In this document: in pieces, positions 5,305 to 28,199 of the stretch
How the letters are laid out: every line of letters begins with the position of its first letter
How positions within the stretch are numbered: position 1 is the first letter of the stretch
Assembly: GCA_963822445.1 (NCBI GenBank)
Contig: CAWGHO010000002.1
Span: 2,304,001 to 2,368,000, forward strand
DNA: 64,000 nucleotides
Direction: 5' to 3'
Origin: an uncultured Acidobacteriota bacterium
GTDB taxonomy: Bacteria > Acidobacteriota > Thermoanaerobaculia > Gp7-AA8
Position numbers and translations under genes: made by a program
The notes under the pieces: generated by a model
What the model was told of the DNA's origin: nothing
Database searches by the model: none
What the model saw: the letters and a program-made list of their open reading frames with translations, nothing else

Positions 5305-6317
5305 TCCTTCAAAATCTCCTCGATCATGTCGATGGCCCGGTCATCGCCGGTCTGGGCCAGCCAGAACATCGCCTTCTTCCGCACGCCCGGGCTCTTGTGG
5401 TTGCGCACGAGGTCCATGAGCAGCGGCACGGAGCGGTCGTGCGGCAATTGGGAGATGGCGAAGACGGCGTGCTCGCGGACGTCGTCGTCGGGGTCCTCGT
5501 CGACGAAGCGGCGAAGCTCGTCGGCGGCTTTCGCGCCGGCGCGCTGGCCGAGCCAGAAGATCGCCTCGCGGCGGATCTCCTTCGTCTTGTCGTTGCGAGC
5601 CAGCGAGATCAGCTCAGCGGTCGCGCCTTCGTACTGATTCTGCGACAGCGAGAACACCGCTTTCTTGCGCAGAGACGTGCTTTCGTTCGAGCGGAGGAAG
5701 TCGCGCAGGAAACGGAAGCCGCGCTCGCCGCCGCGCTGGCCGATCCAGAACAGCGCGTCCTCCCGAATCTTCGATGACTCGCCCGGTCCAGCGAGCCGCT
5801 CGAGCGCGGGAAGTGCATTCGCGTGCGCATGCTGCGCGATCGCGCCGACCACGGAGTTGCCGTGGCGGCCGACCGTCTGACGCGCTTTGTCGACGAAGAA
5901 GGCGATGCTGCTGGCGGGATCGACGTTCGCGAGCACCGTCACTTCGTTACCGCGGCCGTCGACCGCGCACGTGCTGTCGAACATCTGCACTCGCGTCACC
6001 AGCCCCTTTTCGATCTCGACGGCGATGGTGACGTCGGTCGTGTCAGCTTGCCGGTCGTTATCGCCGTGATTGATCGACCAGCCGCGATTGCCGCCGAGGC
6101 TGCAGCCGCCGCAGCAGCCTTTCCGGTCGTTGGTCCAGCAGCAGATCGAGCCGCCTTCAGCCATCGGCACGCTCCAGGCGAACCAGCCGTCGCGATTTCC
6201 GATCGCCTGCGCAACGCCGCCGCGCGCGTCGACATTGCGAACCGTTCCGTTGGTGAACTGCTGTGCGAAAAGCGACGTCGTGATGAGCAGCGAGGCGAGG
6301 ATCAGGCGCGTATTCAT
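5301..6317 (-). CDS. Secreted HEAT-repeat protein
   Basis: Signal peptide; repeated IREDALFWIGQ / IRREAIFWLGQ / VRKKAMFWLAQ units. Confidence 0.88.
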   Translation of the reverse strand: MNTRLILASLLITTSLFAQQFTNGTVRNVDARGGVAQAIGNRDGWFAWSVPMAEGGSICCWTNDRKGCCGGCSLGGNRGWSINHGDNDRQADTTDVTIAVEIEKGLVTRVQMFDSTCAVDGRGNEVTVLANVDPASSIAFFVDKARQTVGRHGNSVVGAIAQHAHANALPALERLAGPGESSKIREDALFWIGQRGGERGFRFLRDFLRSNESTSLRKKAVFSLSQNQYEGATAELISLARNDKTKEIRREAIFWLGQRAGAKAADELRRFVDEDPDDDVREHAVFAISQLPHDRSVPLLMDLVRNHKSPGVRKKAMFWLAQTGDDRAIDMIEEILKD

Positions 6318-6320
6318 CGG

Positions 6321-7547
6321 TTACTCCTCGAGTAGCTCCAGCATGTAAGCGACGGCGTCATCACTGCCCATGACCGAGAGCTTCTGAAGGATCTCCTTCT
6401 TCATCTGCCGGTTGGTTTCCTTCCTGGCGAGCTCGATCAGGGCCTTGGCGTTACCCATGACGAAGAGGCCGTTGATGACGGCTTCTTTCACTTCGTGGTC
6501 TCCGGTCGCGTAGAAACCGAGGAGAGCCGGCGCCGACTTCTTGCCCATCAGTCCGAGCTTCTGAATGGCCTCGGCGCGAAGCTTGGTGTCCTTCTCGTTC
6601 GTGGCCAGCTCGGTGATGCGGGTGTAGTCACCGGCGATGAAGAGCCCTTGGATGATCTCTTCCTTCATCTGACGCGAGGTCTCGGTCGCGTACATCGAGG
6701 CCAGCTCGGCGCGGGCGCCCATGACGCCGAGGAGACGGATCGCGTCTTCGCGCAGCTCGAGGTTCTTCTCGGTCTTCGCCGCCTCGAGCACGCGGGCCTT
6801 ATTGCCGCTGATCATCCAGGCCTTGAGCACCTCGCCCTTGACCTCGGTGCCGGCGTTCGGCGACGCGTAAACCTCGGCCAGCAACTGTCCGTTGCGCTGG
6901 CCGCCGGCGATGCCGAGGTAGCGGATCGCTTCTTCCTGGATCTCGGGGTTGGCGTTCCCGCGGGCGATGTTGGCGAGCAGAGTCTGCGCGCGAGGCGATG
7001 AGGACTGGCTGAGGATGAACAGCGCCTGCTGCTTCATCTTCTTCGTGTACGAACCGCCCTTGACGATCTTCTCCAGCAGGGGAAAGGCTTTTTCCGGATC
7101 GGTGTGCATCAGCGACTGGATGGCGATCACCTTCACGTCATCGTCGACGCTCTCCGGCTTCACCCGCTGGCCGGCACCCTGGCGCACTTCGATCTCGAGG
7201 GCCTTGGCGTCGTTGAGCCAGCGGCTGGACGGGTGGCCTTTCTTCAATCCTTCGATGACGCTCAGCGCCTCGGTGCGGCGATTGAGCTTGTTGAGCGAGT
7301 AGGCCATCCAGTACAGCGCTCCGTCCTGCCGGCTGCCCTTCATCTCCGCGACGCGGGTGAATTGCTCGAGAGCCTCTTCCCACTCTTCGTCGTCGATGTA
7401 GTCGGTGCCGTCTTCGTAGAGCTCACTCTCGCGCTCGGAGCGCTCGGAACGCTGTTCGGCTTCGCCGTACTCGAGGTCCGCCGCGACGAGCCCCGTGGTC
7501 ATGAATGCGGCGATGAGAATGGCCGCCAGTAGTTTTCTGATGTTCAT
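6321..7547 (-). CDS. Secreted TPR + HEAT-repeat protein
   Basis: Signal peptide, TPR-like ALYWMAYS segment, repeated EEAIRYLG / EDAIRLLG units. Confidence 0.88.
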   Translation of the reverse strand: MNIRKLLAAILIAAFMTTGLVAADLEYGEAEQRSERSERESELYEDGTDYIDDEEWEEALEQFTRVAEMKGSRQDGALYWMAYSLNKLNRRTEALSVIEGLKKGHPSSRWLNDAKALEIEVRQGAGQRVKPESVDDDVKVIAIQSLMHTDPEKAFPLLEKIVKGGSYTKKMKQQALFILSQSSSPRAQTLLANIARGNANPEIQEEAIRYLGIAGGQRNGQLLAEVYASPNAGTEVKGEVLKAWMISGNKARVLEAAKTEKNLELREDAIRLLGVMGARAELASMYATETSRQMKEEIIQGLFIAGDYTRITELATNEKDTKLRAEAIQKLGLMGKKSAPALLGFYATGDHEVKEAVINGLFVMGNAKALIELARKETNRQMKKEILQKLSVMGSDDAVAYMLELLEE

Positions 7548-7562
7548 CGTCAGTCCTTGTGC

Positions 7563-8330
7563 TCAAACGTTCGGTTGATTGAGGTCGTTGGCTGCTTCGC
7601 CGGTGCGCGTGTCGTTGCGCAGGACGCGAAGCTTGAAGACCAGCCCCTTTGCCTCGACGCGCTTCTGGATGCGGCGGAGCTCGTCCGCCGGCATGTCCTC
7701 GGGCGCGTGGGCGATCTGCAGCAGGATCGGCTCGAGCTCGTCGAGGAGCGTGGCCACGCTCTCCTCTCCGCGATCGAGTGCGGTCCGGCGATACAGGCGG
7801 TTGCTGGTGAGAAGTTCCTCGGCGACGGCGCGCTCGGCGCCGATGTCGACGTTTTCGTCAGTCGGTGTGATGTTGGTCAGCTCGACGAGGACGCGCTCGG
7901 AACGGTCGAAGTGATCGTTGACCACGACCAGGAGCACGCGGTCGCGCTGCTGTTGTGTAGAGGGTTGGGTTACTGGGGTTGCTGGGTTGCTGGGTTGCTG
8001 GGTTGCTACCTGCGTAACTGGTGCTGCGTCGCGTTTCCAGAGCAGACCGCCGATGAAAGCGAGCATCACCACGGCGGCCGCGGCTGCCCACTTCATCCAT
8101 CCGTGTTTCGCCTGTTTTTTCTCGACGCGCATCCGCCAGCGCAGGCGCTCCCAGACGCGGGTCTCGTAGTCATCGGCCGGTTCCGGTACTTCCGGTGCGG
8201 TCACGCGATCGAGCACGGTCGCGAGACGCGCGAGGTCGGCCTGACAGTCCGCGCAGGTGCGGAGGTGCTCCTCCGAGCCGGGCTCGCCGTAGTAAGCCGC
8301 CACGATGTCTTCCTGAGTGAGGTGATTCAT
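7563..8330 (-). CDS. Zinc-finger anti-sigma factor
   Basis: HLRTCADC (HxxxCxxC) motif, single TM, downstream of ECF sigma. Confidence 0.85.
   Translation of the reverse strand: MNHLTQEDIVAAYYGEPGSEEHLRTCADCQADLARLATVLDRVTAPEVPEPADDYETRVWERLRWRMRVEKKQAKHGWMKWAAAAAVVMLAFIGGLLWKRDAAPVTQVATQQPSNPATPVTQPSTQQQRDRVLLVVVNDHFDRSERVLVELTNITPTDENVDIGAERAVAEELLTSNRLYRRTALDRGEESVATLLDELEPILLQIAHAPEDMPADELRRIQKRVEAKGLVFKLRVLRNDTRTGEAANDLNQPNV
7962..8008. repeat. 8-mer tandem repeat (GGGTTGCT) inside anti-sigma CDS
   Basis: About 4 units encoding QQPSNPATP on the minus strand. Confidence 0.8.
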
Positions 8331-8887
8331 ACGGTGCTTCCCATATATGGCTGCAGGTGTTGCCTGACTTTCTGTACCGCTCTGAAAACGGTGTTCTTGG
8401 TGGCGTTGAGCTTCGTGCCGAGGACTTCGCCGATCTCTTCGAGGGGCATGCCTTCGTAGTGGCGGAGAACGAACGCGGTGCGCTCGTTGCCGCTCATGCC
8501 GTCGAGCGCGACGGCCACGGCTTTCTGCATCTCGGTGCCGAGAAGGATGCGATCGGGCGCCGCGGTCTGTGACGCGATGGCCGAGAGGTCTTCGACGTGT
8601 TCGACGCGGTTGTCGCGGCGCTTGCGGGAGTCGATCAGATCGAGCGCGCAGTTGACGGCGATGCGGTGCAGCCAGGTCGTCAGCGCCGCGCGCGATTCGA
8701 AGGTCGACAGTTGTCTGTAAGCCCGCATGAAAGTCTCCTGCACCACGTCGTCCGCATCGGCGGAGTTCCCGGTGATCCGGTACGCGGATCGGAACAGAGC
8801 CCGCGAGTGCCGCTCGACGATGAGCCGGAACGCGTCATCGTCACCGGCCCGAACGCGCTGAACCAGCTCGCTGTCGCTCAGTTCCAT
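8327..8887 (-). CDS. ECF RNA polymerase sigma factor
   Basis: Region 2 DADDVVQETF and TWLHRIAVN; region 4 HTH. Confidence 0.95.
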   Translation of the reverse strand: MELSDSELVQRVRAGDDDAFRLIVERHSRALFRSAYRITGNSADADDVVQETFMRAYRQLSTFESRAALTTWLHRIAVNCALDLIDSRKRRDNRVEHVEDLSAIASQTAAPDRILLGTEMQKAVAVALDGMSGNERTAFVLRHYEGMPLEEIGEVLGTKLNATKNTVFRAVQKVRQHLQPYMGSTV

Positions 8888-8923
8888 CCGACCAGCTTAG
8901 ACAGGGGATTCCTTGTTTAGTTA

Positions 8924-8998
8924 GTTGCGGGGTTTCGGGGTTACGGGGTTTCGGGGTGGTAGGGACCTCGTAACCCCGAAACCTCGTAACCCCGTAAC
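8924..8998. repeat. Inverted 8-mer tandem-repeat element (GGGGTTWC / GWAACCYC)
   Basis: 4 G-rich units, short spacer, 4 reverse-complement units. Confidence 0.9.
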
Positions 8999-8999
8999 G

Positions 9000-9851
9000 T
9001 TACGCGACCGCGCCCGCTATCCGCGCTCTCATGGCCTGATCCGGCATCACCCCACCGCCCGCCCTCATGTTCTGCCGCAGGTGCTCCACCTTCGAAGTGG
9101 CTGGGATGGCGCAGGTTACGGCGGGGTGGGAGACCACGAACTTGAGGAAGAGCTCGGCCCAGCTCTCACAGCCGATCTCGGCGGCGAAGGGGGGAACAGG
9201 CTTGTTGCGGACGTCGCGGAAGAGCGAGCCGCCGCCGAAGGGGCGGTTGACGAGGACCGCGACGCCTTTTGAGGCGGCGTGCGGGAGGAGGCGGCGCTCG
9301 GCTTCCCGTTCGGCGAGGGAGTAGTTCAGCTGCACGAAGTCGATGCCGCCGCGGTCGATGATCCGCTCGAGGTCGGCATACGCGCCGGCGGTGTAGTGGG
9401 TGATGCCGATGTAGCGGATGCGACCCTCGCGCTTCCACTCGCGGAGCGTAGCCAGGTGGGTGTCGACGTCGAGGAGGTTGTGCACCTGCATCAGGTCGAC
9501 GCGGCCGCGCAGCTTGCGCTCGGAGTCTTCCATCTGGCGGATGCCCGCGGCACGGCCGCTGGTCCAGACCTTCGTGGCCACGAACAGCTTGTCACGGACG
9601 CCAATCTCGACCGCGAGGTCGCCGAGGACGTCTTCGGAACGGCCGTACATCGGCGAGGAGTCGACGACCCGGCCGCCGAGCTTGACGAACTCCGCGAGGA
9701 CGTCGCGAAGCGGTTGGCGTGCGGCATCGGACGGGCCGACGTCGAAGGTCTGCCACGTGCCGAGGCCGATGCGAGGGAGTCGCTCGCGGGCCTTGCCGCC
9801 GGCGCCGAGAGCGCCCGCGGCAAGGATGGCGATCGCCTCGCGGCGCGTCAC
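9000..9851 (-). CDS. Aldo/keto reductase
   Basis: IGLGTW, DSSPMYG, ATKVW, GRIRYIGIT, AIPATSK; GTG start overlaps upstream TGA. Confidence 0.92.
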   Translation of the reverse strand: MTRREAIAILAAGALGAGGKARERLPRIGLGTWQTFDVGPSDAARQPLRDVLAEFVKLGGRVVDSSPMYGRSEDVLGDLAVEIGVRDKLFVATKVWTSGRAAGIRQMEDSERKLRGRVDLMQVHNLLDVDTHLATLREWKREGRIRYIGITHYTAGAYADLERIIDRGGIDFVQLNYSLAEREAERRLLPHAASKGVAVLVNRPFGGGSLFRDVRNKPVPPFAAEIGCESWAELFLKFVVSHPAVTCAIPATSKVEHLRQNMRAGGGVMPDQAMRARIAGAVA

Positions 9852-17209: not shown

Positions 17210-17740
17210 TTATACGGCGCGCCCCTTCTTCCGCTGCTCGGGATAGAGCACGAGAAACGTCCGCAACCCTTCCATCGTCTCTTTCACCCCGTCGGGAATG
17301 GTCTTCGTCCGCAGCCAGAAGCAGGACGGATCGAGCAGGTTGCGCAGGACCTCGATGAACTGGTTCAGCGAGATGTACGTGTTCTGGTAGAGCTGCGCTT
17401 TCGGGCTCTCGCCGTACTTCGCGCGCAGGATCTTGCTGACCACGCGCGCCGCCAGGTAGTAGGGCGTCTGCAGGATGTCGAACTCGTCCTGCGACATGCG
17501 CGGACCCTTGGTGATGTGCTGGCGATTGATCGTCGCCTGGAAGAATTCGACGGTCATGACCACGGCGGTTTTCGGAATCGGTCCGCAGCGTCCGGACTCC
17601 ACGGCCTGCGCCAGGAAGGCCGTGAGCGCCTTCACATGCTCGCTGTCGGGAGGGGAGAGCTCGCGCAGTCCGTACTTCCTGGCGATGGCGCGCTCGTCGA
17701 GCTCGGGGACCGGCGCCTCGACCGTCTTGTTGTCATCCAT
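17210..17740 (-). CDS. Hypothetical protein
   Basis: Genome-typical codon usage; start chosen at MDDNK. Confidence 0.7.
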   Translation of the reverse strand: MDDNKTVEAPVPELDERAIARKYGLRELSPPDSEHVKALTAFLAQAVESGRCGPIPKTAVVMTVEFFQATINRQHITKGPRMSQDEFDILQTPYYLAARVVSKILRAKYGESPKAQLYQNTYISLNQFIEVLRNLLDPSCFWLRTKTIPDGVKETMEGLRTFLVLYPEQRKKGRAV

Positions 17741-17785
17741 ATGGAACGAACCCGGGCCGGAGAATAGCACGCTAGAATCGGCCTC

Positions 17786-18661
17786 ATGCAGACGGCTGAG
17801 CTTCTACGGAGCGTGCCGCTGTTCAACCTTCTGGACGCGCCCGAACTGGCCGATCTGGAGGCCGTGCTGGAGCGTCTCGAGGTCGCCGCCGGCCAGACTG
17901 TTTTCTCGTTCGGCGAGCCCGGCGAATCGCTGTACATCGTGGCCGCGGGAAGCGTCGAGCTGTTCGTCAAAGACAACAGCGGCGCCAAGATCGTGCTCAC
18001 GAACTGCGGCGCCGGCGAGCGGTTCGGCGAGCTGTCGCTGTTCGACGGCGGAGCGCGCACGGCGACCGCGGTCGCACTCGAGGATTCGACGCTGTTCGTG
18101 CTCCATCGCGACGACCTGCTCGCGTTTCTGCGACGCCATCCCGAGGCCGCGTTCGACTTCCTGACCACGATGGGACAGCGGATGCGCAACGCCGACGAGA
18201 TGCTCCGCCGTCGCGTGGCCCGCAACATCAACGAGGAGCACGAAACGCGCATCTCGACGATGGATCACATCGCCGACCTGATCGCGGCCTTCAGCGGCAG
18301 CATCCCCTTCCTCGTTCTGAATGCGGTCTGGTTCATCGGCTGGATCGTCTGGAACACGGCGCCGTTCCTGCCGCACTTCGATCCCTACCCGTTCGGCTTC
18401 CTGACGATGGTGGTGTCGCTCGAAGCGATCTTCCTGTCGATCTTCGTGCTGGTCAGCCAGAACCGGCAGGCGGCGAAGGACCATCTCCGCGCAGAGGCGG
18501 ATTACGAGGTGAATCTGAAGGCGGAGCTGGAGATCTCCCACCTGCACGAGAAGGTCGATTTTCTGACCGAGGAGCTGCTGGCGCGATTGCCGCGCGGTCA
18601 CAGAACACCCGCGCCGAAAGGTGTAGTGCAGGCCTCCGGCCTGCCTCGGGGCGGGGATTAG
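17786..18661 (+). CDS. cNMP-binding domain + DUF1003 membrane protein
   Basis: FGELSLFDGGARTATA; FDPYPFGFLTMVVSLEAIFLSIFVLVSQNRQ. Confidence 0.92.
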   Translation: MQTAELLRSVPLFNLLDAPELADLEAVLERLEVAAGQTVFSFGEPGESLYIVAAGSVELFVKDNSGAKIVLTNCGAGERFGELSLFDGGARTATAVALEDSTLFVLHRDDLLAFLRRHPEAAFDFLTTMGQRMRNADEMLRRRVARNINEEHETRISTMDHIADLIAAFSGSIPFLVLNAVWFIGWIVWNTAPFLPHFDPYPFGFLTMVVSLEAIFLSIFVLVSQNRQAAKDHLRAEADYEVNLKAELEISHLHEKVDFLTEELLARLPRGHRTPAPKGVVQASGLPRGGD

Positions 18662-18687
18662 GGCAGGCCGGAGGCCTGCACCACACC
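18620..18687. repeat. Palindromic element (same family as 4475-4542) spanning a convergent junction
   Basis: GGTGTAGTGCAGGCCTCCGGCCTGCC...GGCAGGCCGGAGGCCTGCACCACACC. Confidence 0.85.
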
Positions 18688-19319
18688 TACTTCCAGCTCA
18701 TCTCGAACACACACGCCTTATCCCCAAGACACTGGCACTTCGACTCGATGACCGTGGGATCGGTCCCGCCGTGGCGAAGGATGGTCTCGAGGAAGAAGCC
18801 CACCGCGCTGGCGCAGTAGACTGGGCTGTAGACCGGATAGTCGCTGTAGGTCATCCGCCCGCCGGACGGGGTCTTCTCGAACTTCTGCTGGCCGAACTTC
18901 TGATACTGGCTGTGAAACAGCGCGTTGCTCTCCAGGAACTGCGTCAGCCCCTCGGAATCGAGCGACTTGTAGACGCGGCCCACGCCCAGCTCCGCCGACG
19001 CCGCACCGATCAGCGCCAGCACGTTCGGATATTCGCTCTTCAGCTCATTGTGAATGGCGCGATCGAGCTCGATCAGCGACTCGAACTCGCACCAGCTCGA
19101 GGCCAGCGGCGTCTTCACGTAGCTGCGCGTGCGCGGGGTGAGCTTCTCGATGAATTTCGCGAAGCGCTCTTCGCCCATCGTGTCCATGAGGAACTGCTTC
19201 CGCCCGCCGAACATCACCCCTTTGACCTTGGCGATGGAGGGATCGCGGCCGGTCAGGACTTCCTTTCCTTCGAGGCGAGGCGGCGATGGTGGCGCTTTCC
19301 GTTCTTTGAGCAGCGACAT
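18687..19319 (-). CDS. V4R-like domain protein
   Basis: KVKG N-terminus, YCASAVGFF, C-terminal ESKCQCLGDKACVFEMSW. Confidence 0.7.
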   Translation of the reverse strand: MSLLKERKAPPSPPRLEGKEVLTGRDPSIAKVKGVMFGGRKQFLMDTMGEERFAKFIEKLTPRTRSYVKTPLASSWCEFESLIELDRAIHNELKSEYPNVLALIGAASAELGVGRVYKSLDSEGLTQFLESNALFHSQYQKFGQQKFEKTPSGGRMTYSDYPVYSPVYCASAVGFFLETILRHGGTDPTVIESKCQCLGDKACVFEMSWK

Positions 19320-19335
19320 GGCGTGATTCTATGCC

Positions 19336-20985
19336 TCAGCGGAGATGCCGATACATCTCCGGAACAAACTCGCCGTCGCTCGCTTCACGCGCGGCGAGGC
19401 CGATCTGAAAGTCCATCACGTCCGGCGGCACCGGATTCTGATACCCGTCGAGCGTCTCCCGCAGCGCGTCCACCGCCGCCAACCCTTCGGTCCGAGCCGA
19501 GCGATAAACCTTCACCGCAATCGCCTCGGCTGCACCAGGCGTCAGGTGTTTCGGAATGAGCGGCTCGAGCGACGCGAAGTCGGTTTCGGGGATGTCGATG
19601 CCGCGCCGTTTCGCGAGCGCGCGCAGCAGCGCGAATCCTTCCGCGGCGGTGGTCGCCGGAAAAATGGGGATCTTCACGTCGACGCGGCCGGGCCGCTTGA
19701 GATCAACTTCGATGAGATCGGGACGGCTCGAGGCGAGGATCCAGATGATCCGTCCGCGATTCGCGGGATCGCTCATCTGCGCGGCGAACATGCCGTAGAT
19801 GCGTCCCGACAATCCGGAGTCGCTGGTGCCGCCGTCGCGTTTGCCGAGGGCCTGGTCTGCTTCGTCGATGAAAACGAAACAGCGGCCGAGGCCTTTGAGC
19901 AGGCGGAAGATCTTCTCCAGATTGCCTTCCGTGCTGCCGACCCATTTGTCGCGGAAGTTCTTCAGCTTCACCACCGGCACGCCGGCTTCACCGGCCAGGC
20001 ATTCGACGAGGTAGGTCTTGCCGGTGCCGACCGGACCGCAGAGCAGGTAGCCCATCGGCAGCGCTTCGATGTCGTTCATCTGCCAGAGCTTGATGTCCTG
20101 CCGCAGCCAGGTCTTCAGCTTTTCCTGCGCGTTGTAGTCGTCGAGCGTGCGCTTGGATTCGATGAACTCGATCAGGCCGCCGGCGTCTTTTTCGACGAGC
20201 TCCTTGCGCATGGTCACGAGATCGCCCGCGCGCAAGGCCTGCTTCGCATGCGTCCGGGTGCGCAGGAGGTTCTCGATGGAGTTGAGGGTCGATCCCGTCA
20301 ATTGATGCGCGAGCGCGTCGAAGGCCGGCGCGAACTCGGCGAGAGTGTCGCGATGATCGCCGGCCAGGTGCTCGAGTGCGTCGCGCAATTCAGCCGGCGT
20401 CGGCAGGGGAACCTCGACCGAGGACGCGCGAGGGTTGCTGACCAGGAGCGCGTGGAGATCGTGAAGGTTGTCGGCGATGAGAAACGTGACCAGCGAGTGT
20501 CGCGAGAGCTGCTCGTCGGCCGACCAGTCGCGCATGAGCAGCGCCAGGGCATTGAGGTCGTAGTTGAGCGCGCCGGGTAGCGCCGGCGCAACGAGATGGG
20601 CGGCCTTCATGTAGAAGCCGATCTGGTAGTTCTCCTGGCCGAGCCGCGCGAGATTGGCGGAGTAGCGGAAGAAGCGGGTCAGCCATTCGATAGCCGCGCG
20701 CGGCGCTCTCGGGAGCTCGGAGTTTTCCTTGAACGCCGGCCAACGCGTGAGGATCTCGCCGCCGCGCTCGATGCGGACGCCGTTGCCGAGGTCGTAACTG
20801 AGGATGACGTCGAAGCGGGGCATCATCACCCGGGTGAGGAACTCGTACAGCGTGCCGAGGGTGCGTTTGTCTCCAGAGGTCAACAGGAAGCGATCGTTGA
20901 CGTTGCCGTAGAGCAGGAACTGATTCGACGCGTGCGATTCGTAGAGGGCGATCAGCTTCGAAGCCCACCCGGGCAGCGCACTCAT
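19336..20985 (-). CDS. AAA+ ATPase, classical clade, with degenerate N-terminal AAA-like domain
   Basis: Walker A GPVGTGKT, pore loop KWVG, Walker B FVFIDEAD, SRH RPDLIEVDLKRPGRVD. Confidence 0.92.
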   Translation of the reverse strand: MSALPGWASKLIALYESHASNQFLLYGNVNDRFLLTSGDKRTLGTLYEFLTRVMMPRFDVILSYDLGNGVRIERGGEILTRWPAFKENSELPRAPRAAIEWLTRFFRYSANLARLGQENYQIGFYMKAAHLVAPALPGALNYDLNALALLMRDWSADEQLSRHSLVTFLIADNLHDLHALLVSNPRASSVEVPLPTPAELRDALEHLAGDHRDTLAEFAPAFDALAHQLTGSTLNSIENLLRTRTHAKQALRAGDLVTMRKELVEKDAGGLIEFIESKRTLDDYNAQEKLKTWLRQDIKLWQMNDIEALPMGYLLCGPVGTGKTYLVECLAGEAGVPVVKLKNFRDKWVGSTEGNLEKIFRLLKGLGRCFVFIDEADQALGKRDGGTSDSGLSGRIYGMFAAQMSDPANRGRIIWILASSRPDLIEVDLKRPGRVDVKIPIFPATTAAEGFALLRALAKRRGIDIPETDFASLEPLIPKHLTPGAAEAIAVKVYRSARTEGLAAVDALRETLDGYQNPVPPDVMDFQIGLAAREASDGEFVPEMYRHLR

Positions 20986-21752
20986 TGCATCTCCCTCGGC
21001 GTATACGTCGTCCCGCCATCATCGAGGTTCGCGAGCAGATGCGAGGTCAGCTCGACATTCGCGGAGATCGCCGCGGGCCGTCCGCGCAGGCTTGCTTCTT
21101 CGAGGGCGACGTCGAACTGCGTCTCGATGCGAGCCAGATCCGCGTCGATCTCGGCGAGGTAGGTCTGGCGATGCTGCACGTTGTCGAGGCGCTCGCGGAG
21201 AAGGCGCAACGTCGCTTCCTTCGATCCGCGCAGGGTTTCCGAGGGTGGGGCGGTGGCGATCTCGCGCTCGAGGGAGGCGATCTGTTTCTGCAGATCGCGC
21301 TCGTCGGATTGCGGGGCGACGATGAGGTTCCGTTGGGCGACGAGCAGGTTCAGGAAGAGCCAGGTCAGCTTGCGCAGTGCGTCGCGATTGCTTTCGTAGA
21401 GCAGGTCGTCGCTCTGTTCCTTTCCGGAAAGCTGCTCCAGTCGCACGCGCTTCTCTTCGAGCTTTTCGTAGCGCCGTCTCGCTGCGCCGCCAATGCTTTT
21501 TCGGAGCGCGTCGCGTGCTTCATCGGTATCGCCGCGCTGTTCCTCGATGCGGCGGTTGTCGATGGACTGCTGAAAGCCCGCGTTCGACGCGAGCGTGAGG
21601 AGGTAGATCATCTCGCCGGCCGTGGCCACGCCCCAGATTGCAGGGTCCCAGAACCCGGCGACCGCTGCCGCGACCATGGCCACGGCATTCCACGGCAACC
21701 GCAGCAGAGGAATGTCGGGCCGGGCGAAGAAGGCGTGCCAGAGGTAACGCAT
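20982..21752 (-). CDS. Membrane-anchored coiled-coil hypothetical protein
   Basis: N-terminal hydrophobic hairpin then heptad-rich helices; ATGA overlap with ATPase. Confidence 0.8.
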   Translation of the reverse strand: MRYLWHAFFARPDIPLLRLPWNAVAMVAAAVAGFWDPAIWGVATAGEMIYLLTLASNAGFQQSIDNRRIEEQRGDTDEARDALRKSIGGAARRRYEKLEEKRVRLEQLSGKEQSDDLLYESNRDALRKLTWLFLNLLVAQRNLIVAPQSDERDLQKQIASLEREIATAPPSETLRGSKEATLRLLRERLDNVQHRQTYLAEIDADLARIETQFDVALEEASLRGRPAAISANVELTSHLLANLDDGGTTYTPREMQ

Positions 21753-21755
21753 TGA

Positions 21756-21859
21756 TAGTCGTTAGTCGTTAGTGATTAGTCGTTAGTAGATGGAGGGCAA
21801 GTGCGCAGTAGAAGGCTAGTGGCCGGCCTTTCTACTAACGACTAACCACTAACGACTAA
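21756..21859. repeat. Inverted 7-mer tandem-repeat element (TTAGTCG / CGACTAA)
   Basis: 4-5 units, ~40-nt spacer, about 4 reverse-complement units. Confidence 0.9.
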
Positions 21860-22609
21860 TCACTCGGTCGTGGGTCCCATCGACTTCACGCTCTCCGCCG
21901 GCGGGGCTTCGGTAGTGCCGGCGGCGGGCTCGAGGGCCATGCCTTCCTTCGCGGCGAAGTCGGCGAGGGCCTGGTCGGCGAGGGCTTTCTGCTCTTCTTC
22001 CTTGATCGCGAAGTCGGTGGTGTTCAGGGAGTCGCGGGCGATGCGCGCGCGGCCGGAGGCCTGTTCGCGCTCTTCCTCGACCATCTTGTGCAGGCGATCG
22101 AGCGTGTCGCCCGATCCGCCGATCGACGTGATCATGCCTGAGGCCATTTCGGTCAGCTCCGCGGTTGCCTTCTTGATCTTCAGATCGTCGAGGCTCGACT
22201 TGAGAGCCTGGATCTTCGCCTGTGCGGCTTTCACTGACACGTCGCGGGCCTTGATCAGCTCCTTGTACGTCGTCTCGGCCTGTTCGAGCTGGGCGCGATT
22301 CTCGGTGAGCTCGCGCGACACGGTCTGCAGGCGGAGCGCGTAGTTGCCGGCCACGTCGCGGTTGCCGGCGCGGAGATTCGCCGCGGTCTTGGCGCGCAGC
22401 TCGCGCTCTTCGGTCTCGAGCTTGCGGATCTGGGTCATCAGCCGCTCGCACAGTCCCGCGTGCGCGGCGAGCCCTTCGTTGTAATTCGAGATCTGCTTTC
22501 TGAGGTTCTCTTTTTCCACCTCGAGCAGCGCTTCGGGATTGCGCCGCTCCATGCCGGAAACGAAGAGGCCGAGGAATCCGCGGAAGATGTTCGCGAGTCG
22601 TCTGAACAT
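21860..22609 (-). CDS. PspA/IM30 (ESCRT-III-like) family protein
   Basis: Amphipathic N-terminus MFRRLANIFRGFL, NPEALL, long coiled coil, LRAGNRDVA hinge. Confidence 0.85.
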   Translation of the reverse strand: MFRRLANIFRGFLGLFVSGMERRNPEALLEVEKENLRKQISNYNEGLAAHAGLCERLMTQIRKLETEERELRAKTAANLRAGNRDVAGNYALRLQTVSRELTENRAQLEQAETTYKELIKARDVSVKAAQAKIQALKSSLDDLKIKKATAELTEMASGMITSIGGSGDTLDRLHKMVEEEREQASGRARIARDSLNTTDFAIKEEEQKALADQALADFAAKEGMALEPAAGTTEAPPAESVKSMGPTTE

Positions 22610-22629
22610 GATCGGCGAAGTGTATCGCT

Positions 22630-23627
22630 TCACCCGCTGCGCGCGGAGCGCCGGCGGCGCGCGGGAGGCGGCGAGGGATCGCCGGCCAGCGCCAGGCCGT
22701 CCGCCGTCGCGCCCGCTCGAGCCGAGCCGACGACTTCGTAGGTCTCGAGGTCGAGCTTCACCACCAGGTCGGGATCAGTCATGCCGATGTACGCGAACCT
22801 GCTGTCGCGGCTCACCAGGATCCCTAAGGGCCTGCCGACGATGCCGAGAGTGCGGATCTCCTGGCGCGCGAGCGCGTCGTAGACCGCGATCGCCCGTTGT
22901 TCGTGGCGGGGAACGAGCACGCGGCGCCCATCGTGCGTGAAGGTCAGGCGGTAGTTGAACGTGCCCGGCGAGAGCGTGGCCACGCGCGATTCCGTCATCA
23001 GATCGATGATGGCGATACCACCGGTCGACGCGCTGCCGACCTACAACTCCCGGCCGTCGGGCGAGAGCGCGATTCCTTCGCCGTGCACGACCGTGGGGAT
23101 CGTCTTGCGCGCGATCGACTCGCTGCCGCTCACGTCGATGATCGACGCTGTGCCCGAGCCGACATTGGCCGTGTACACGACCTTGCTGTCGCTCCGCACG
23201 GCGAGCATGTGCGTGCCCACCTGATTCGTGCGGCCGATCCAGTCGATGCTATCGGTCAGCGGGTCATATCGGGCGACGGCACTCGATTTCTCTGCCGTGA
23301 ACCAGATCTTGCCGTCGCGCTGCACGATGCCGTGAGGCGCGGCGAGCGGCGCGATGTTGATCGTCTTCAGGGTCGTGCGCGCGACGAGATCGACCACCGT
23401 CAGCGTCTGACCGGTCGCATTCACATAATTGGAGACGTACGCGAATTTGTTGTCGTACGAGACCCCGACTTCGTGCGGCTGCGGGCCGGCCTCGATCTCG
23501 CCCAGGCGCTGCATCGTCTCCGCATCGACGAGCGTCACGGTTGTGCCGCCGCGGTTGCCACGACGAGAACATCGGCCTGTGCCGAGACTGCGATGAATGC
23601 AGCGAGGAACAGCAGCACGATTCGCAT
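22630..23627 (-). pseudogene. YncE/YVTN-type beta-propeller protein, disrupted (frameshift ~23555, in-frame TAG 23041-23043)
   Basis: Signal peptide, PHEV/PHGI/GEGIALSPDG repeats split over three ORFs; ELWVG reads EL*VG. Confidence 0.7.
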
Positions 23628-24165: not shown

Positions 24166-26442
24166 ATGAGCTATCGCCGCGCATTCACAACGATTACGAA
24201 GCGTTCCCTGCTGATCACTCTGCTGGGCCTGCTTTGCGTCACGGCCGTGCCCGCCATCGCGCAGGACGCGCCGCCACCACCGGCCCAGACCGAGGCGAAA
24301 GCGGATGATCCGCCCACGGCCAGCGAAGAGATCGTGGTCACCGCCCGCAAGCGCGAAGAGAACGTGCAGGAAGTCCCGGTCGCCGTCTCGGTCGTGACCT
24401 CCGACGAGCTGGAAGAGTCGGCCGCGGCAGACATCTCCGAGCTCCAGACCCAGGTGCCCAACCTCTCCGTCTATCAGGGCCGCAACCAGTCCACGACCCT
24501 CACCGCGTTCATGCGCGGCATCGGCCAGGCCGATCCGCTCTGGGGCGTCGATCCCGGAGTCGGTCTGTACATGGACGACGTCTACATCGCCCGTCCCCAG
24601 GGTGCGCTCCTCGATGTCTACGACGTCGAGCGCATCGAAGTGCTGCGCGGCCCGCAGGGCACGCTGTACGGGAAGAACACCATCGGCGGCGCGATCAAGT
24701 ATGTCAGCCGTCCCCTCACCGATGACTTCACCGCCTCGGTCGGCCTGACCGCCGGCGAACACTCGACCCTCGACCTGCGCACCAGCATCGCCGGGGCGCT
24801 CATCCCCGGAAAAGTGCGCGGCAAGCTGGCCTTCGCCTCGCTGAACCGCGGCGGCTACGGCGAGAACCGCTTCACCGGCCGCGACGTTTCGGACCGCAAG
24901 ACGTTCGCCATGCGCGGCGCCATCGACTGGCTTGCGACGGAAAAGATCAAGGTGGCCTTCGCCGCCGACTACACGAAGGACGACGCCGAGCCGAAGGGCT
25001 ACCAGCGTCTCATCCCGAACCGCCTCTGCCCCGCGTTCGGCATCGTCTGCCCGACGTACGACAGCCGCTGGGACACGGACAGCGGTCTGGCGCCGCTCAA
25101 CGGAACGGAAGCCATGGGCGGCTCGATGACCATCTCCTCGCCGATCAGCAGCGGATGGGACTTCAAGTCGATCACCGCGTACCGCGAGTCGGATTCGGAG
25201 AACAACATCGACTTCGATACGACGACTGCGCGCATCGTCGACGTCACCGCCACTTACTACGATGAGCAGCTCTCCCAGGAGTTCCAGTTCGTCTACGACA
25301 CTGGCGGAAAGATCTCCGGTGTTCTCGGCGCGTACTACTTCGACGGCGAGGCCGGCGGCCTGGTCAAGAACATCTTCGCGAACGCGCAGTTCGGAACGAC
25401 GAACGGAAAGACCTTCACCGAGTCGATCGCCCTCTTCGGCGACGGCAGCTACTCTTTCAACGACCGGCTGACGTTCAACGGCGGTCTGCGCGCGACCCGC
25501 GAGACGAAGAACGGTGTGGCCTTCAACGCCGGCTTTGCCAACGATCAGTTCAGCACACCCGTGGTCATCCTCGCGAACTACGACAAGGAAGCGACGTTCG
25601 ACTCCATCGCCCCGAAACTCGGAGTCGACTACAAGTTCCGCGAGGACGTCCTCGGATACGTCAGCCTTAGCCGGGGTTTCAAGAGCGGCGGCTTCAACGT
25701 GCGCGCACAGTCGAACGTTTTCCCGAAATCGGCCGAGCCGTTCGACGATGAGGTCCTGACGGTGGGCGAGCTCGGATTGAAATCGGTGCTTGCCGACGGC
25801 CGGCTCGTGCTGAACACCGCCGTTTTCCACGGCAAATACGAGGACATTCAGGTCTCGACGTTCACCGCCTTCGACGCGAACGGCGACGGCATCGAGGAGT
25901 CGTTCTTCGGTAACTTCATCAACGCCGGCAACGCGACGATGAACGGAGTGGAAGTCGAATTCGACGCGTCCACCCCCAACATCGACTGGCTGGCCGTGAA
26001 CGGCTACGTGAGCTATCTCGATCTCGAGCCGGATGAAGTTCTCGATGCAAACCGCGACGGCTTCGTCGACACGCAGGTGATCACCAATGCGCCGGAATGG
26101 ACGGGCGGTCTGCGTCTGAACTTCGACTTCCCGGCCCTGGGCGGCCTGCTCACGGCCAGTGCCGGCGGCGCGTATCGCTCGGACTCGACGCTCACCAACG
26201 AGGGCGGTTCCTTCGGCGGGCAGCCGGTGCGTCCGATCACCCAGGACGCGTACACGCTGTTCGACGCGTGGGTGAGCTGGCTCTCGCCTGATGCGACGTG
26301 GCGGTTCGGACTCAACGCGAAGAACATCACCGACGAGGCCTATCTGACCAACGGCTACAACATCCCCGCCCTCGGCATCCTCACCGGCTCGTACGGTGCG
26401 CCGCGGACGGTTCTGGCCACGGTCGAATACCGGTTTCACTAG
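24166..26442 (+). CDS. TonB-dependent receptor
   Basis: EEIVVTARKREE TonB box, IEVLRGPQGTLYGKNTIGG plug, GFKSGGFN, C-terminal YRFH. Confidence 0.95.
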   Translation: MSYRRAFTTITKRSLLITLLGLLCVTAVPAIAQDAPPPPAQTEAKADDPPTASEEIVVTARKREENVQEVPVAVSVVTSDELEESAAADISELQTQVPNLSVYQGRNQSTTLTAFMRGIGQADPLWGVDPGVGLYMDDVYIARPQGALLDVYDVERIEVLRGPQGTLYGKNTIGGAIKYVSRPLTDDFTASVGLTAGEHSTLDLRTSIAGALIPGKVRGKLAFASLNRGGYGENRFTGRDVSDRKTFAMRGAIDWLATEKIKVAFAADYTKDDAEPKGYQRLIPNRLCPAFGIVCPTYDSRWDTDSGLAPLNGTEAMGGSMTISSPISSGWDFKSITAYRESDSENNIDFDTTTARIVDVTATYYDEQLSQEFQFVYDTGGKISGVLGAYYFDGEAGGLVKNIFANAQFGTTNGKTFTESIALFGDGSYSFNDRLTFNGGLRATRETKNGVAFNAGFANDQFSTPVVILANYDKEATFDSIAPKLGVDYKFREDVLGYVSLSRGFKSGGFNVRAQSNVFPKSAEPFDDEVLTVGELGLKSVLADGRLVLNTAVFHGKYEDIQVSTFTAFDANGDGIEESFFGNFINAGNATMNGVEVEFDASTPNIDWLAVNGYVSYLDLEPDEVLDANRDGFVDTQVITNAPEWTGGLRLNFDFPALGGLLTASAGGAYRSDSTLTNEGGSFGGQPVRPITQDAYTLFDAWVSWLSPDATWRFGLNAKNITDEAYLTNGYNIPALGILTGSYGAPRTVLATVEYRFH

Positions 26443-26463: not shown

Positions 26464-27180
26464 ATGAACCTCAATCTCAAGGACAAAGTCGTCATCGTGA
26501 CGGGCGGCGCGGCTGGAATCGGCCGCGCCACCACCACGGCGTTCGAGAACGAAGGCGCGCGCGTCGTGGTCTGGGACGTTCCGGACGTGAACGTGACCCA
26601 GCCTGAAGTGGTCAGCGCGGCGACGGAGAGAGTCATCGCCGAGCACGGCCGCATCGACGTGCTGGTCAACAACGCCGGCATCGTCCGCGACTCGCAGCTG
26701 ATCAAGTGGAAGGACGGCGAGGTCCTTTCGATGATGGACGACGACACGTTCGACGCCGTGATCAACGTGAACCTCAAAGGCGTTTTTCTCTGCACGCGCG
26801 CGGTGGCGCCGCACATGATCAAGAACGGATCGGGCGTCATCCTCAATGCCTCCTCGATCGTCGGCCTGTACGGAAATTTCGGACAGACCAATTACGCGGC
26901 GACCAAGGCCGGCGTGATCAGTTTTACCAAGACCTGGGCGCGTGAGCTGGGTCGCTACAACATCCGCGTCAATTGCGTCGCGCCTGGATTCATCGCCACG
27001 GAAATGGTCAAAGCCATGCCCCAGAAGGTGCTCGACGGCATGGCCGCGAAAACACCGCTCGGAAGAATGGGCGAGCCGGACGACATCGCCAATGCGTACG
27101 TCTGGCTGGCCAGCGACGCCGCGAAATTCGTCCATGGCGCAGTGCTCTCTGTCGACGGCGGGCTGGTGATGGGAACCTGA
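26464..27180 (+). CDS. fabG: 3-oxoacyl-ACP reductase-like SDR
   Basis: TGGAAGIG, NNAGIVRD, GNFGQTNYAATK. Confidence 0.85.
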   Translation: MNLNLKDKVVIVTGGAAGIGRATTTAFENEGARVVVWDVPDVNVTQPEVVSAATERVIAEHGRIDVLVNNAGIVRDSQLIKWKDGEVLSMMDDDTFDAVINVNLKGVFLCTRAVAPHMIKNGSGVILNASSIVGLYGNFGQTNYAATKAGVISFTKTWARELGRYNIRVNCVAPGFIATEMVKAMPQKVLDGMAAKTPLGRMGEPDDIANAYVWLASDAAKFVHGAVLSVDGGLVMGT

Positions 27181-28199
27181 TGGCCTACGCAAACATCGTT
27201 GCGACGGGCTCCTACCTTCCCGAGATCGAGATCTCGAATGACCTGCTCCGCGCGCGCTTCAATGACAGTGCGCCGGAATTCGTCGACAAGATGGAAGCGG
27301 CCAGCGGGATCCGTACGCGCTGGTACGCGCCGGAGGACTGGTCTGCATCCGATCTCGCTCTGCGTGCCGCGCAACAGGCACTGGAGCGCGCCGGCAAGAA
27401 GCCCGAAGACGTCGATCTGATCATCCTCGGCACCGACTCGCCCGATTACATCACTCCGGCAACGTCTGTCGTATTGCAGGCGAAGCTCGGCGCGAAGAAT
27501 GCTGGGACGTTTGATGTCGGCTGCGCGTGCGCATCCTTTCCAACGGCGATCGCCAATGCCGCCGGACTGATGGCCACGAACCCCGGATTGAAGACGGTTC
27601 TGGTCGTGGCCGTGTATCTGATGCACAAGCTCGCCAATGAAGACGACCCGATGGTCTTCTTTTACGGAGACGGCGCCGGCGCGGCGATTCTGGAGCGCAG
27701 TGAAGAGCCTGGATTCATCGCTGCCGCGTTTCACGCGGACGGCACGTACGCGAAGAACTGGCTGATTCAGGCCGGCGGCACCGTCGAGCCGGCGACCGAG
27801 CTCGCGGCGCGCGAAGGACGAACGCTGGTGACGATGCTCGAGCGTTATCCGCCCGAGATCAACAACGACGGCTGGCCGAAGATCGTACGCAGAGTCGCGG
27901 AGAACGGCGGCTTTGCTTTGAACGACATCGACTTCGTGATTTTCACCCAGGTCCGCAAGCCGACCATCGAGCTGGTCATGGAAAAGCTCGGCCTGCCGAT
28001 GGCGAAAACGCACATGATCATGGAGCGCTGGGGCTACACCGGCTCTGCATGCATTCCCATGGCCTTCAACGACGCGATCGAGGAAAAGAAGATCAAGCCC
28101 GGCGATCTGGTCGTGCTCGTCGGATCCGGTGTCGGATACAACCAGGCCGCGGCCGCGTTCCGCATGCCCATGAACGAGAAACGGCTTTTCCGCGGGTGA
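27180..28199 (+). CDS. Ketoacyl-ACP synthase III (FabH-like)
   Basis: TGSYLP, FDVGCACA catalytic Cys, GDGAGA; FTQ and GYTGSA replace canonical HQ and GNTS. Confidence 0.85.
   Translation: MAYANIVATGSYLPEIEISNDLLRARFNDSAPEFVDKMEAASGIRTRWYAPEDWSASDLALRAAQQALERAGKKPEDVDLIILGTDSPDYITPATSVVLQAKLGAKNAGTFDVGCACASFPTAIANAAGLMATNPGLKTVLVVAVYLMHKLANEDDPMVFFYGDGAGAAILERSEEPGFIAAAFHADGTYAKNWLIQAGGTVEPATELAAREGRTLVTMLERYPPEINNDGWPKIVRRVAENGGFALNDIDFVIFTQVRKPTIELVMEKLGLPMAKTHMIMERWGYTGSACIPMAFNDAIEEKKIKPGDLVVLVGSGVGYNQAAAAFRMPMNEKRLFRG

Follow-up and report, generated by a model that had tools for sequence, protein, structure and literature searches.

ESCRT-III proteins recruit the ATPase Vps4 through a flexible linker that ends in a conserved short motif. 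Abstracts on two bacterial members of the superfamily, PspA and Vipp1, say that these proteins assemble on their own, with no ATPase. A 2025 review reports that a Vps4-like ATPase appears absent in bacteria and that E. coli PspA binds and inhibits PspF, a sigma-54 enhancer-binding AAA+ protein with a helix-turn-helix (HTH) domain (PMC7619361). Closest to the present case, passages in Ravi et al. 2024 (mSystems, PMC11237479) describe bacterial PspA occurring occasionally with a double-AAA+ protein in which the first copy is inactive, and PspA with Snf7 homologues bearing transmembrane (TM) segments in longer operons that hold a two-AAA+ ATPase, an ATP-binding cassette (ABC) ATPase, a permease, and a PBPB-OmpA protein. 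The same passages suggest ATP-dependent membrane remodelling comparable to Snf7 and Vps4. A term search of Popp et al. 2022 (PMC9239133) returned no passage on such an ATPase, and full-text literature searches listed no paper testing a PspA-AAA operon at the bench. Here we describe a four-gene operon from an uncultured Acidobacteriota bacterium in which pspA stands with genes for a small membrane protein, here called Mid, a AAA ATPase, and a V4R-like protein.

The window, by which we mean the whole 64,000-nucleotide (nt) stretch analysed, spans positions 2304001-2368000 of contig CAWGHO010000002.1 (C2) in assembly GCA_963822445.1. The host belongs to Thermoanaerobaculia, Gp7-AA8, and its genome is 6.0 Mb on three contigs and 94.7% complete. 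Four co-directional open reading frames (ORFs) lie on the minus strand at 18687-22609. The first, pspA (21860-22609), encodes a 249-amino-acid (aa) PspA/IM30 protein of the ESCRT-III superfamily with a PF04012 match. Mid (20982-21752) encodes 256 aa of no assigned family, modelled as an N-terminal hairpin of two TM helices followed by a helical cytoplasmic part. The AAA ATPase gene (19336-20985) encodes 549 aa with a PF00004 match, and the last gene of the unit (18687-19319) encodes a 210-aa V4R/DUF2378-like protein with a weak V4R match. The stop codon of Mid and the ATG of the ATPase share positions 20982-20985 in a 4-nt ATGA overlap, the gap from the ATPase to the V4R-like gene is 16 nt, and that from pspA to Mid is 107 nt. 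A consensus scan returned no promoter-like site, and terminator-like sites numbered 1 against 3.9 expected. No RNA data set was listed for the locus, and the DNA data sets listed all shared under 0.2 of the sequence words. The four genes are one unit. The initial annotation had reported a same-strand cluster of the first three genes with ATGA coupling, and every ORF and the overlap were found as it described. It had also seen no PspB/C/F-like gene nearby, which we confirmed around the locus; PspC-domain matches occur in the host genome at C2:966738 and C2:1310005, ~1.0-1.4 Mb from the window, and PspB was not found in the whole 6.0-Mb genome. Snf7 (PF03357) was likewise not found in the host genome. 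PF04012 matched once (the pspA gene), the Mid family once, and the ATPase's N-terminal domain once strongly.

The window operon is a reduced member of the kind described by Ravi et al. 2024, matched by description and not by accession. Like the operons in that paper, it places PspA beside a tandem AAA+ protein with an inactive N-terminal copy and a helical TM protein, and its relatives carry the ABC and SBP-OmpA genes (SBP, solute-binding protein). Unlike them, the window lacks ABC and SBP+OmpA genes between 18687 and 22609, genes of the longer form that Ravi et al. 2024 describe as optional, and has a V4R-like gene added. The TM protein is called a Snf7 homologue in that paper, an identity that could not be confirmed for Mid here. 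The idea of membrane remodelling by PspA and its ATPase is not new, as the same Snf7/Vps4 analogy is drawn there (PMC11237479). New here are the proof of the degenerate N-terminal AAA+ domain (D1) of the ATPase, counts of co-occurrence, a second phylum, a C-terminal tail motif in PspA, and a weak predicted contact between PspA and the ATPase.

The ATPase is, by sequence and structural model, a tandem AAA+ protein with a degenerate D1 and an active D2 that is predicted to be catalytic, because D1 has the AAA+ fold without a P-loop and D2 is a classical AAA domain. D2 (residues ~280-549, 19336-20148, including a conserved C-terminal region) matched AAA (PF00004) with 86.8 bits over residues 313-440, the only Pfam family besides a sub-threshold AAA_22. 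It holds Walker A GPVGTGKT (317-324), the pore loop KWVG (347-350), Walker B FIDEAD (372-377), and KRPGRVD (430-436) with two arginines of the second region of homology (SRH). All four elements were invariant in 24 aligned ATPase sequences. All the motifs named in the initial annotation were thus located, and its call of a classical pore-loop AAA protein stands. By sequence, the best solved relatives of D2 were the D2 domains of VAT, p97, NVL, and Afg2 (E 3e-34 to 1e-30). NCBIfam models scored far below their cut-offs: CDC48 (TIGR01243) 66.6 bits against 802.65, covering residues 305-442 only, FtsH 61, PAN 49.9, and CdvC (NF041006) 27.8 bits against 650.

D1 (residues 1-275, 20161-20985) has no Walker A, and residues 1-300 had no Pfam match. 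Folded with a 22-sequence alignment, D1 gave a confident model (predicted local distance difference test, pLDDT, 89.4; predicted template modelling score, pTM, 0.86). Foldseek matched it to AAA+ domains of p97, FtsHi, Rpt, Vps4, and Pex1/Pex6 (E ~1e-6, prob 1.00, TMq ~0.5). In VIA-align against 48,161 chains, all 50 matches listed were AAA+ or closely related P-loop ATPase domains, with Z 10.3-13.8 over 168-232 aligned residues; the best among them include Pex1/Pex6 (Z 13.8), p97 D1 (Z 13.4), and NSF D2 (Z 11.0). The P-loop position reads LLYGNVND (24-31), and no GxxGxGK[ST] occurs in D1. The domain starts at residue 1, and apart from a conserved LPxWA helix no distinct N-terminal domain stands ahead of it. 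No MIT domain is present, as residues 1-275 fold as an AAA+ domain in the model, and Pfam found no sigma-54 interaction domain and no HTH or other DNA-binding domain in the ATPase. In its tandem folds, of which only one is catalytic, the protein resembles type II AAA proteins that have a single degenerate ring (Pex6 D1, NSF D2, p97/VAT); unlike Cdc48/p97/VAT, it has no N-terminal substrate or adaptor domain (double-psi barrel) ahead of D1.

These features bear on the comparison with ESCRT-III/Vps4 (CdvB/CdvC in archaea). The locus resembles that pair in setting an ESCRT-III-superfamily protein beside a classical AAA ATPase with an aromatic pore loop and SRH arginines, and in the short conserved motif that follows a flexible linker at the PspA C-terminus, similar to a MIT-interacting motif (MIM). 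It differs in having a degenerate AAA+ D1 in place of MIT and a dedicated partner with two TM helices. The ATPase is not built like Vps4, because it has no MIT domain, carries a degenerate D1 instead, and its D2 matches best with the D2 of Cdc48/VAT and not with CdvC. Judged from sequence and model, it appears to be an analogue and not an orthologue of Vps4, unrelated to it beyond the classical AAA clade. The likeness to Vps4 would be analogy, or independent recruitment of a Cdc48-like ATPase.

The pspA ORF was listed as 21860-22633 from a GTG, and the ATG at 22609 gives 249 aa, in agreement with the starts of homologues in the alignment. The protein matched PspA_IM30 (PF04012) above the curated threshold (37.2 bits, cut-off 33.9, residues 2-221). 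A profile of 15 operon-type PspAs matched solved Vipp1/PspA structures over positions 2-200 (7o3w, E 2e-11; 6zvr, E 3.5e-9). Past position ~200, ATPase-linked PspAs continue with a conserved helix (ALADQALADF, residues 209-218), a variable linker rich in Pro/Ala/Thr, and then a short motif, in the window KSMGP (residues 242-246, codons at 21872-21886 of the minus strand). Across the 15 aligned ATPase-linked PspAs, K242, G245, and P246 were at least 90% conserved. We scored the motif as [KR]x[MLI]GP within the last 45 residues. It was present in 14/15 distant ATPase-linked PspAs, in 24/25 close relatives (the remaining one reads NAMGP), and in 0/30 canonical PspAs, taken as the highest-scoring of the phylum sample; many canonical PspAs end in LAxLKKKMGI. 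In the close set, linker columns were 20-70% identical vs 90-100% for motif columns, the free second position excepted. ATPase-linked PspAs thus carry a short, conserved motif in the C-terminal tail, which is new here. The linked PspAs of one Acidobacteriota genome (G251, L137) and of four Verrucomicrobiota operons (L097-L100) end in ER(K/Q)K(I/L)xE, perhaps a tail motif of another type.

Searching with the ATPase gave 34 loci, of which 25 keep the order PspA-Mid-AAA-V4R; seven further Acidobacteriota loci are cut by contig ends, and each retains a consistent subset with nothing contrary. The remaining two, from Verrucomicrobiota, hold the ATPase alone. The closest ATPase relatives were from Thermoanaerobaculia (Acidobacteriota) according to their source names. 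The ATPases of the 32 close Acidobacteriota loci are 71-83% identical, so the synteny of these loci alone says little.

More distant loci were compared as well. We searched 401 Acidobacteriota genomes with the ATPase N-terminal domain (N-domain), found it in 62, and fetched ~13 kb around the 20 best non-self matches. Pfam annotation of these loci covered 102 of the 219 ORFs that passed a filter on G+C content at third codon positions, chosen as those 180-700 aa long and in or beside the clusters; none came from L069 or L084. A Mid-family ORF, detected with a hidden Markov model (HMM), stood beside or near the ATPase in 16/20 loci, and PspA lay within the fetched stretch in 15/20, 14 of them above the Pfam cut-off and one at 26.8 bits. 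The commonest form has six genes: PspA, SBP+OmpA, ABC permease, ABC ATPase, Mid, and AAA. Its SBP is of the NMT1/phosphonate-binding type fused to OmpA, a fusion present in 13/20 loci. The 4-nt overlap of Mid and AAA occurs in the window, L073, L081, and L085. In L066 and L079 the ATPase follows PspA directly, with no Mid or ABC genes, and the L079 pair overlaps by 4 nt. As side observations, five loci (L068, L085, L098, L099, and L102) have a von Willebrand factor A (VWA) gene within the operon or next to it, adjoining the PspA or SBP/OmpA genes, and in L074 (G226) a 920-aa ORF (7081-9843) sits between Mid and the ATPase, with PspA 8.6 kb from the ATPase.

Genome-wide co-occurrence was counted after a PF04012 search across the 401 genomes. 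They divided into 52 with N-domain and PspA, 10 with N-domain and no PspA, 73 with PspA and no N-domain, and 266 with neither, so that PspA was present in 52/62 genomes with the ATPase N-domain vs 73/339 without it. We give no test statistic because related genomes are not independent, by which the contrast is overstated. Of the 52 genomes with both, 34 had PspA and the ATPase on one contig at a distance of 0.8-8.6 kb; in one, the two were 1.0 Mb apart. The arrangement also reached a second phylum. In Verrucomicrobiota the N-domain profile matched 9/251 sampled genomes, and of eight other loci fetched, four carry a PspA-like gene with SBP/OmpA, Mid, and AAA. Two more divergent Verrucomicrobiota loci hold OmpA, NMT1, VWA, and ABC genes along with 250-315-aa proteins of no assigned family.

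An IQ-TREE phylogeny of 32 ATPases, midpoint-rooted for drawing only, placed the window ATPase in one clade (support 100/100, long stem of 1.48) with five close relatives, L066, and three stand-alone Verrucomicrobiota ATPases. That clade nests in a larger one of 22 rows (100/100), the remaining members of which belong to operons carrying ABC genes. The topology fits a loss of transporter genes in the lineage of the window, as a fit and not as proof given the midpoint root. In the loci compared, the neighborhoods of PspA with the ATPase and of Mid with the ATPase are conserved across Acidobacteriota and Verrucomicrobiota, and an ABC importer whose SBP is fused to OmpA as a peptidoglycan anchor usually accompanies them. 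The check on neighborhood conservation proposed with the initial annotation accordingly came out in favor of PspA-ATPase linkage, which holds across deep divergence and two phyla.

Mid had no Pfam or NCBIfam match. Its hydrophobicity windows peak at residues 14-43, with two hydrophobic helices, and its model (107-row alignment, pLDDT 89.1) has a short N-terminal helix, two TM helices (21-33, 37-56), and a cytoplasmic part that is helical and includes one helix of 52 residues (172-223). Cluster representatives of the family numbered 566 at E<=1e-3, of which 304 reached E<=1e-10. Proteins retrieved with the profile of the Mid alignment were all unnamed or labelled ‘hypothetical’ and had no Pfam domain, and wherever a source name gave an organism it was an acidobacterium. 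Kinship with ESCRT-III/Snf7 was pursued by five routes and established by none. A Pfam scan of 107 members gave nothing consistent, with Snf7 and PspA outside the 25 families most matched; the profile matched no solved structure below E 0.16; hhalign of the Mid family against the operon PspAs gave a probability of 0.9%; Foldseek gave no match at E<=0.001 (best, BAR-like Lsp1/Pil1, E 0.12, TM-score ~0.2); and the best VIA-align match, Z 8.8 on generic helical hairpins, was within the stated noise for helical models. Mid also invites comparison with the mycobacterial pair PspA (Rv2744c)/PspM (Rv2743c), which likewise has a small membrane protein with a cytoplasmic helical part beside PspA; unlike the present locus, the mycobacterial operon has no AAA ATPase in the description by Ravi et al. 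2024. A relationship to PspM was a lead only, raised by Rv2743c as the nearest named cluster in a protein atlas (score 0.88). The Pfam family Rv2743c (PF25587) was not reported for Mid at E<=10, though HMMER filters drop most weak matches, and across the 107 members it did not rank among the 25 top-matched families.

One complex-prediction job of three chains combined the ATPase with Mid residues 58-256 and took PspA as the partner to be scored. The outcome was ‘weak support’, with a median ipSAE (an interface score) of 0.35 (runs 0.35, 0.39, and 0.08) and 0.00 for the best of three controls. The score mark is one reached by 58/80 solved complexes and 2/110 mismatched pairs; at <=0.60 it was reached by only 7 of the 80 solved complexes and by both mismatches. 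The runs shared at least 31% of contacts, partner pLDDT was at least 54, and no interface was given. When the ATPase was replaced and PspA and Mid were kept, the score fell to 0.00, so the signal, if real, depends on the ATPase and not on Mid. This structural check from the initial annotation thus gave a weak PspA score that needs the ATPase and nothing for Mid as an adaptor. The proposal that the middle protein recruits PspA found no support, as the score was lost with Mid still in place and PspA-AAA pairs without Mid exist (L066, L079).

Taken as a whole, the PspA and ATPase genes very probably work together, and the functional link between them is well supported. Our best explanation, to which we give an even chance, is a reduced member of an operon family that couples PspA to a dedicated tandem AAA+ ATPase and a membrane partner. 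Evenly poised, too, is the proposal that the ATPase extracts PspA from polymers. In this mechanism Mid, with its two TM helices and its translation together with the ATPase, would keep the hexamer of the ATPase on the membrane's inner face. The ATPase would recognize PspA, perhaps via the tail motif after the flexible linker, as Vps4 does with MIM tails. The D2 pore would then thread PspA and pull subunits out of membrane-bound PspA polymers, and ATP hydrolysis would power the turnover or reshaping of the PspA coat under envelope stress. Perhaps the V4R-like protein is a clade-specific sensor of small molecules or redox state.

Several observations weigh against extraction of PspA as the shared function of the operon. 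Distant locus L072 has neither PspA nor Mid near the ATPase. The closest non-acidobacterial ATPases, from the Verrucomicrobiota loci L032 and L034 (52-53% identity), have no adjoining PspA or Mid; no PspA was found in the genome of L032, and that of L034 has a window-type PspA on another contig (305.8 bits with the operon-PspA HMM). At L096 (Verrucomicrobiota G483, 4390-8670) an Hsp70 (DnaK-like) gene immediately precedes an ATPase of the window clade, and neither PspA nor Mid is close by. For ten of the 62 genomes with the ATPase, a search at E<=1e-4 turned up no PspA, and in 17 of the 52 genomes with both, the two genes were on different contigs, several of the matches at contig ends. The 73 genomes with PspA and no ATPase N-domain mean that PspA does not need the ATPase. 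The PspA of L079 lacks the tail motif, and the five linked PspAs with the ER(K/Q)K(I/L)xE ending carry a different one. A complex score that passes so weakly is, by the account of the tool, wrong in more cases than it is right, except where the guess had been a likely one to begin with. Lastly, a model of recycling alone gives no role to the ABC importer that the full operon carries.

Some of these points fit a different machine. Mid and the ATPase may form a membrane-protein extraction or quality-control device in the style of Msp1/ATAD1, Cdc48, or a protease-less FtsH, whose substrates would be other envelope proteins, for example the ABC importer or the OmpA-anchored SBP, with PspA only sealing the membrane meanwhile. 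Mid-AAA is indeed the tightest unit (4-nt overlaps; 16/20 loci), the ABC importer and SBP+OmpA fusion are there in 13/20 loci, and ATPases without PspA exist (L032, L034, L072, and L096 beside Hsp70). Against such a device stand the PspA-AAA pairs of L066 and L079 (the latter with its 4-nt overlap), which have neither Mid nor ABC genes, the tail motif that linked PspAs own and 30/30 canonical PspAs lack, and the dependence of the weak PspA complex score on the ATPase. We consider it unlikely, and still the strongest competitor to PspA extraction.

PspA could also be the regulator of the ATPase and not its substrate, silencing it until membrane damage draws PspA off and frees the ATPase for another target. 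The precedent is E. coli PspA, which binds the AAA+ domain of PspF and inhibits it, as described in the 2025 review (PMC7619361); there PspA is again tied functionally to an AAA+ protein. The conserved neighborhood and the weak, ATPase-dependent predicted contact fit a regulator as well as a substrate. The two ATPases are unlike in kind, however: PspF has an HTH, whereas the present one is a classical AAA without a DNA-binding or sigma-54 interaction domain (PF00004 only in Pfam). Its intact aromatic pore loop and SRH arginines are typical of threading unfoldases, and a flexible linker with a short terminal motif has more the look of a recruitment or initiation tag. We rate this account a little lower than the extraction of other envelope proteins.

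Classical pore-loop AAA proteins, such as Vps4, p97, katanin, and ClpB-type motors, mostly disassemble or unfold. This argues against the ATPase being an assembly or loading chaperone that builds or nucleates PspA polymers at membrane sites marked by Mid, as does the self-assembly of PspA and Vipp1 without ATPases stated in abstracts. In favor of assembly, the direction of the reaction is not readable from genomic evidence, and the passages of Ravi et al. 2024 on PspA's AAA+ and chaperone neighbors read them as assembly machinery for membrane-linked complexes (PMC11237479). Assembly keeps a slim chance. Neighborhood by accident with no shared function, to which the unlinked orthologues might point, is very improbable and is contradicted by the synteny counts, with PspA <10 kb from the ATPase in 34/52 genomes with both, PspA in 52/62 ATPase genomes vs 73/339 others (a contrast that kinship inflates), and the arrangement recurring in a second phylum.

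The fourth gene of the unit is a local feature. The V4R-like protein matched V4R (PF02830) with 18.5 bits, below the cut-off of 31, over residues 169-207 only, and among its atlas neighbors DUF2378 was found in 16% of members and V4R in 12%. The gene follows the ATPase in 30/32 close Acidobacteriota/Thermoanaerobaculia loci, the exceptions (L019, L033) ending at a contig end, and was absent from all 20 distant loci (blastp, E<=1e-3). On this distribution it is part of the transcription unit only in the clade of the window. The initial annotation had left its membership undecided; it belongs in the close clade and not in the distant loci.

Beyond the operon, a 27-bp inverted repeat (18619-18688) lies between the convergent V4R-like and cNMP/DUF1003 genes. 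Its arms, 18619-18645 and 18662-18688, are 96% complementary, and its fold energy (-69.2 kcal/mol, z -7.1) was matched by 0/200 shuffles; Rfam gave only sub-threshold hairpins resembling miRNA precursors. The hairpin probably ends the operon transcript as a two-way terminator. The gene at 17786-18661 on the plus strand encodes a cyclic-nucleotide-binding (cNMP) and DUF1003 membrane protein, and that at 17210-17770 on the minus strand a 186-aa protein without a Pfam family. On the opposite strand beyond the V4R-like gene, the cNMP/DUF1003 gene recurs in 15/34 related loci, and the 186-aa ORF recurs in 25/34.

Directly upstream of pspA on the minus strand, a YNCE/lactonase-like beta-propeller gene (22630-23538) is split by an in-frame TAG at 23041-23043. 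The ORF reads ...SPDGREL*VGSAS..., with the sense going on past the stop, and the TAG may have arisen by nonsense mutation (a single change, from TGG) or by a sequencing error, or it may mark a pseudogene. Relatives L011 and L012 have a similar beta-propeller gene upstream of pspA. Farther out on the plus strand are a 758-aa ORF (24166-26442) with a signal-like N-terminus, by eye resembling a TonB-dependent receptor, and then, also judged by eye, short-chain dehydrogenase and FabH-like ORFs (26464-28199). An anti-phage role for the operon was considered on the basis of PADLOC, which yielded nothing beyond generic AAA matches to IetA (40 bits) and, for Mid, a LeoBC match of 23 bits, and was dropped because no partner genes of the IetA or LeoBC systems were seen.

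How bacterial ESCRT-III polymers of PspA and Vipp1 get taken apart is an open question, and the operon family of Ravi et al. 2024 is the obvious candidate for an exception to the apparent absence of a Vps4-like ATPase in bacteria. The window offers handles on it: a transporter-free three-gene core, a domain map of the ATPase, co-occurrence counts, and a candidate recognition motif on PspA. In the most far-reaching interpretation, which we hold only tentatively and rate below PspA extraction itself, the family would be a bacterial machine for ATP-driven ESCRT-III recycling that is independent of Vps4, with a Cdc48-like tandem AAA+ ATPase held by Mid, a MIM-like [KR]x[MLI]GP tail on PspA, and coupling to an importer. 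In the full operon of such a machine, the envelope-anchored ABC importer would sense or correct a periplasmic solute.

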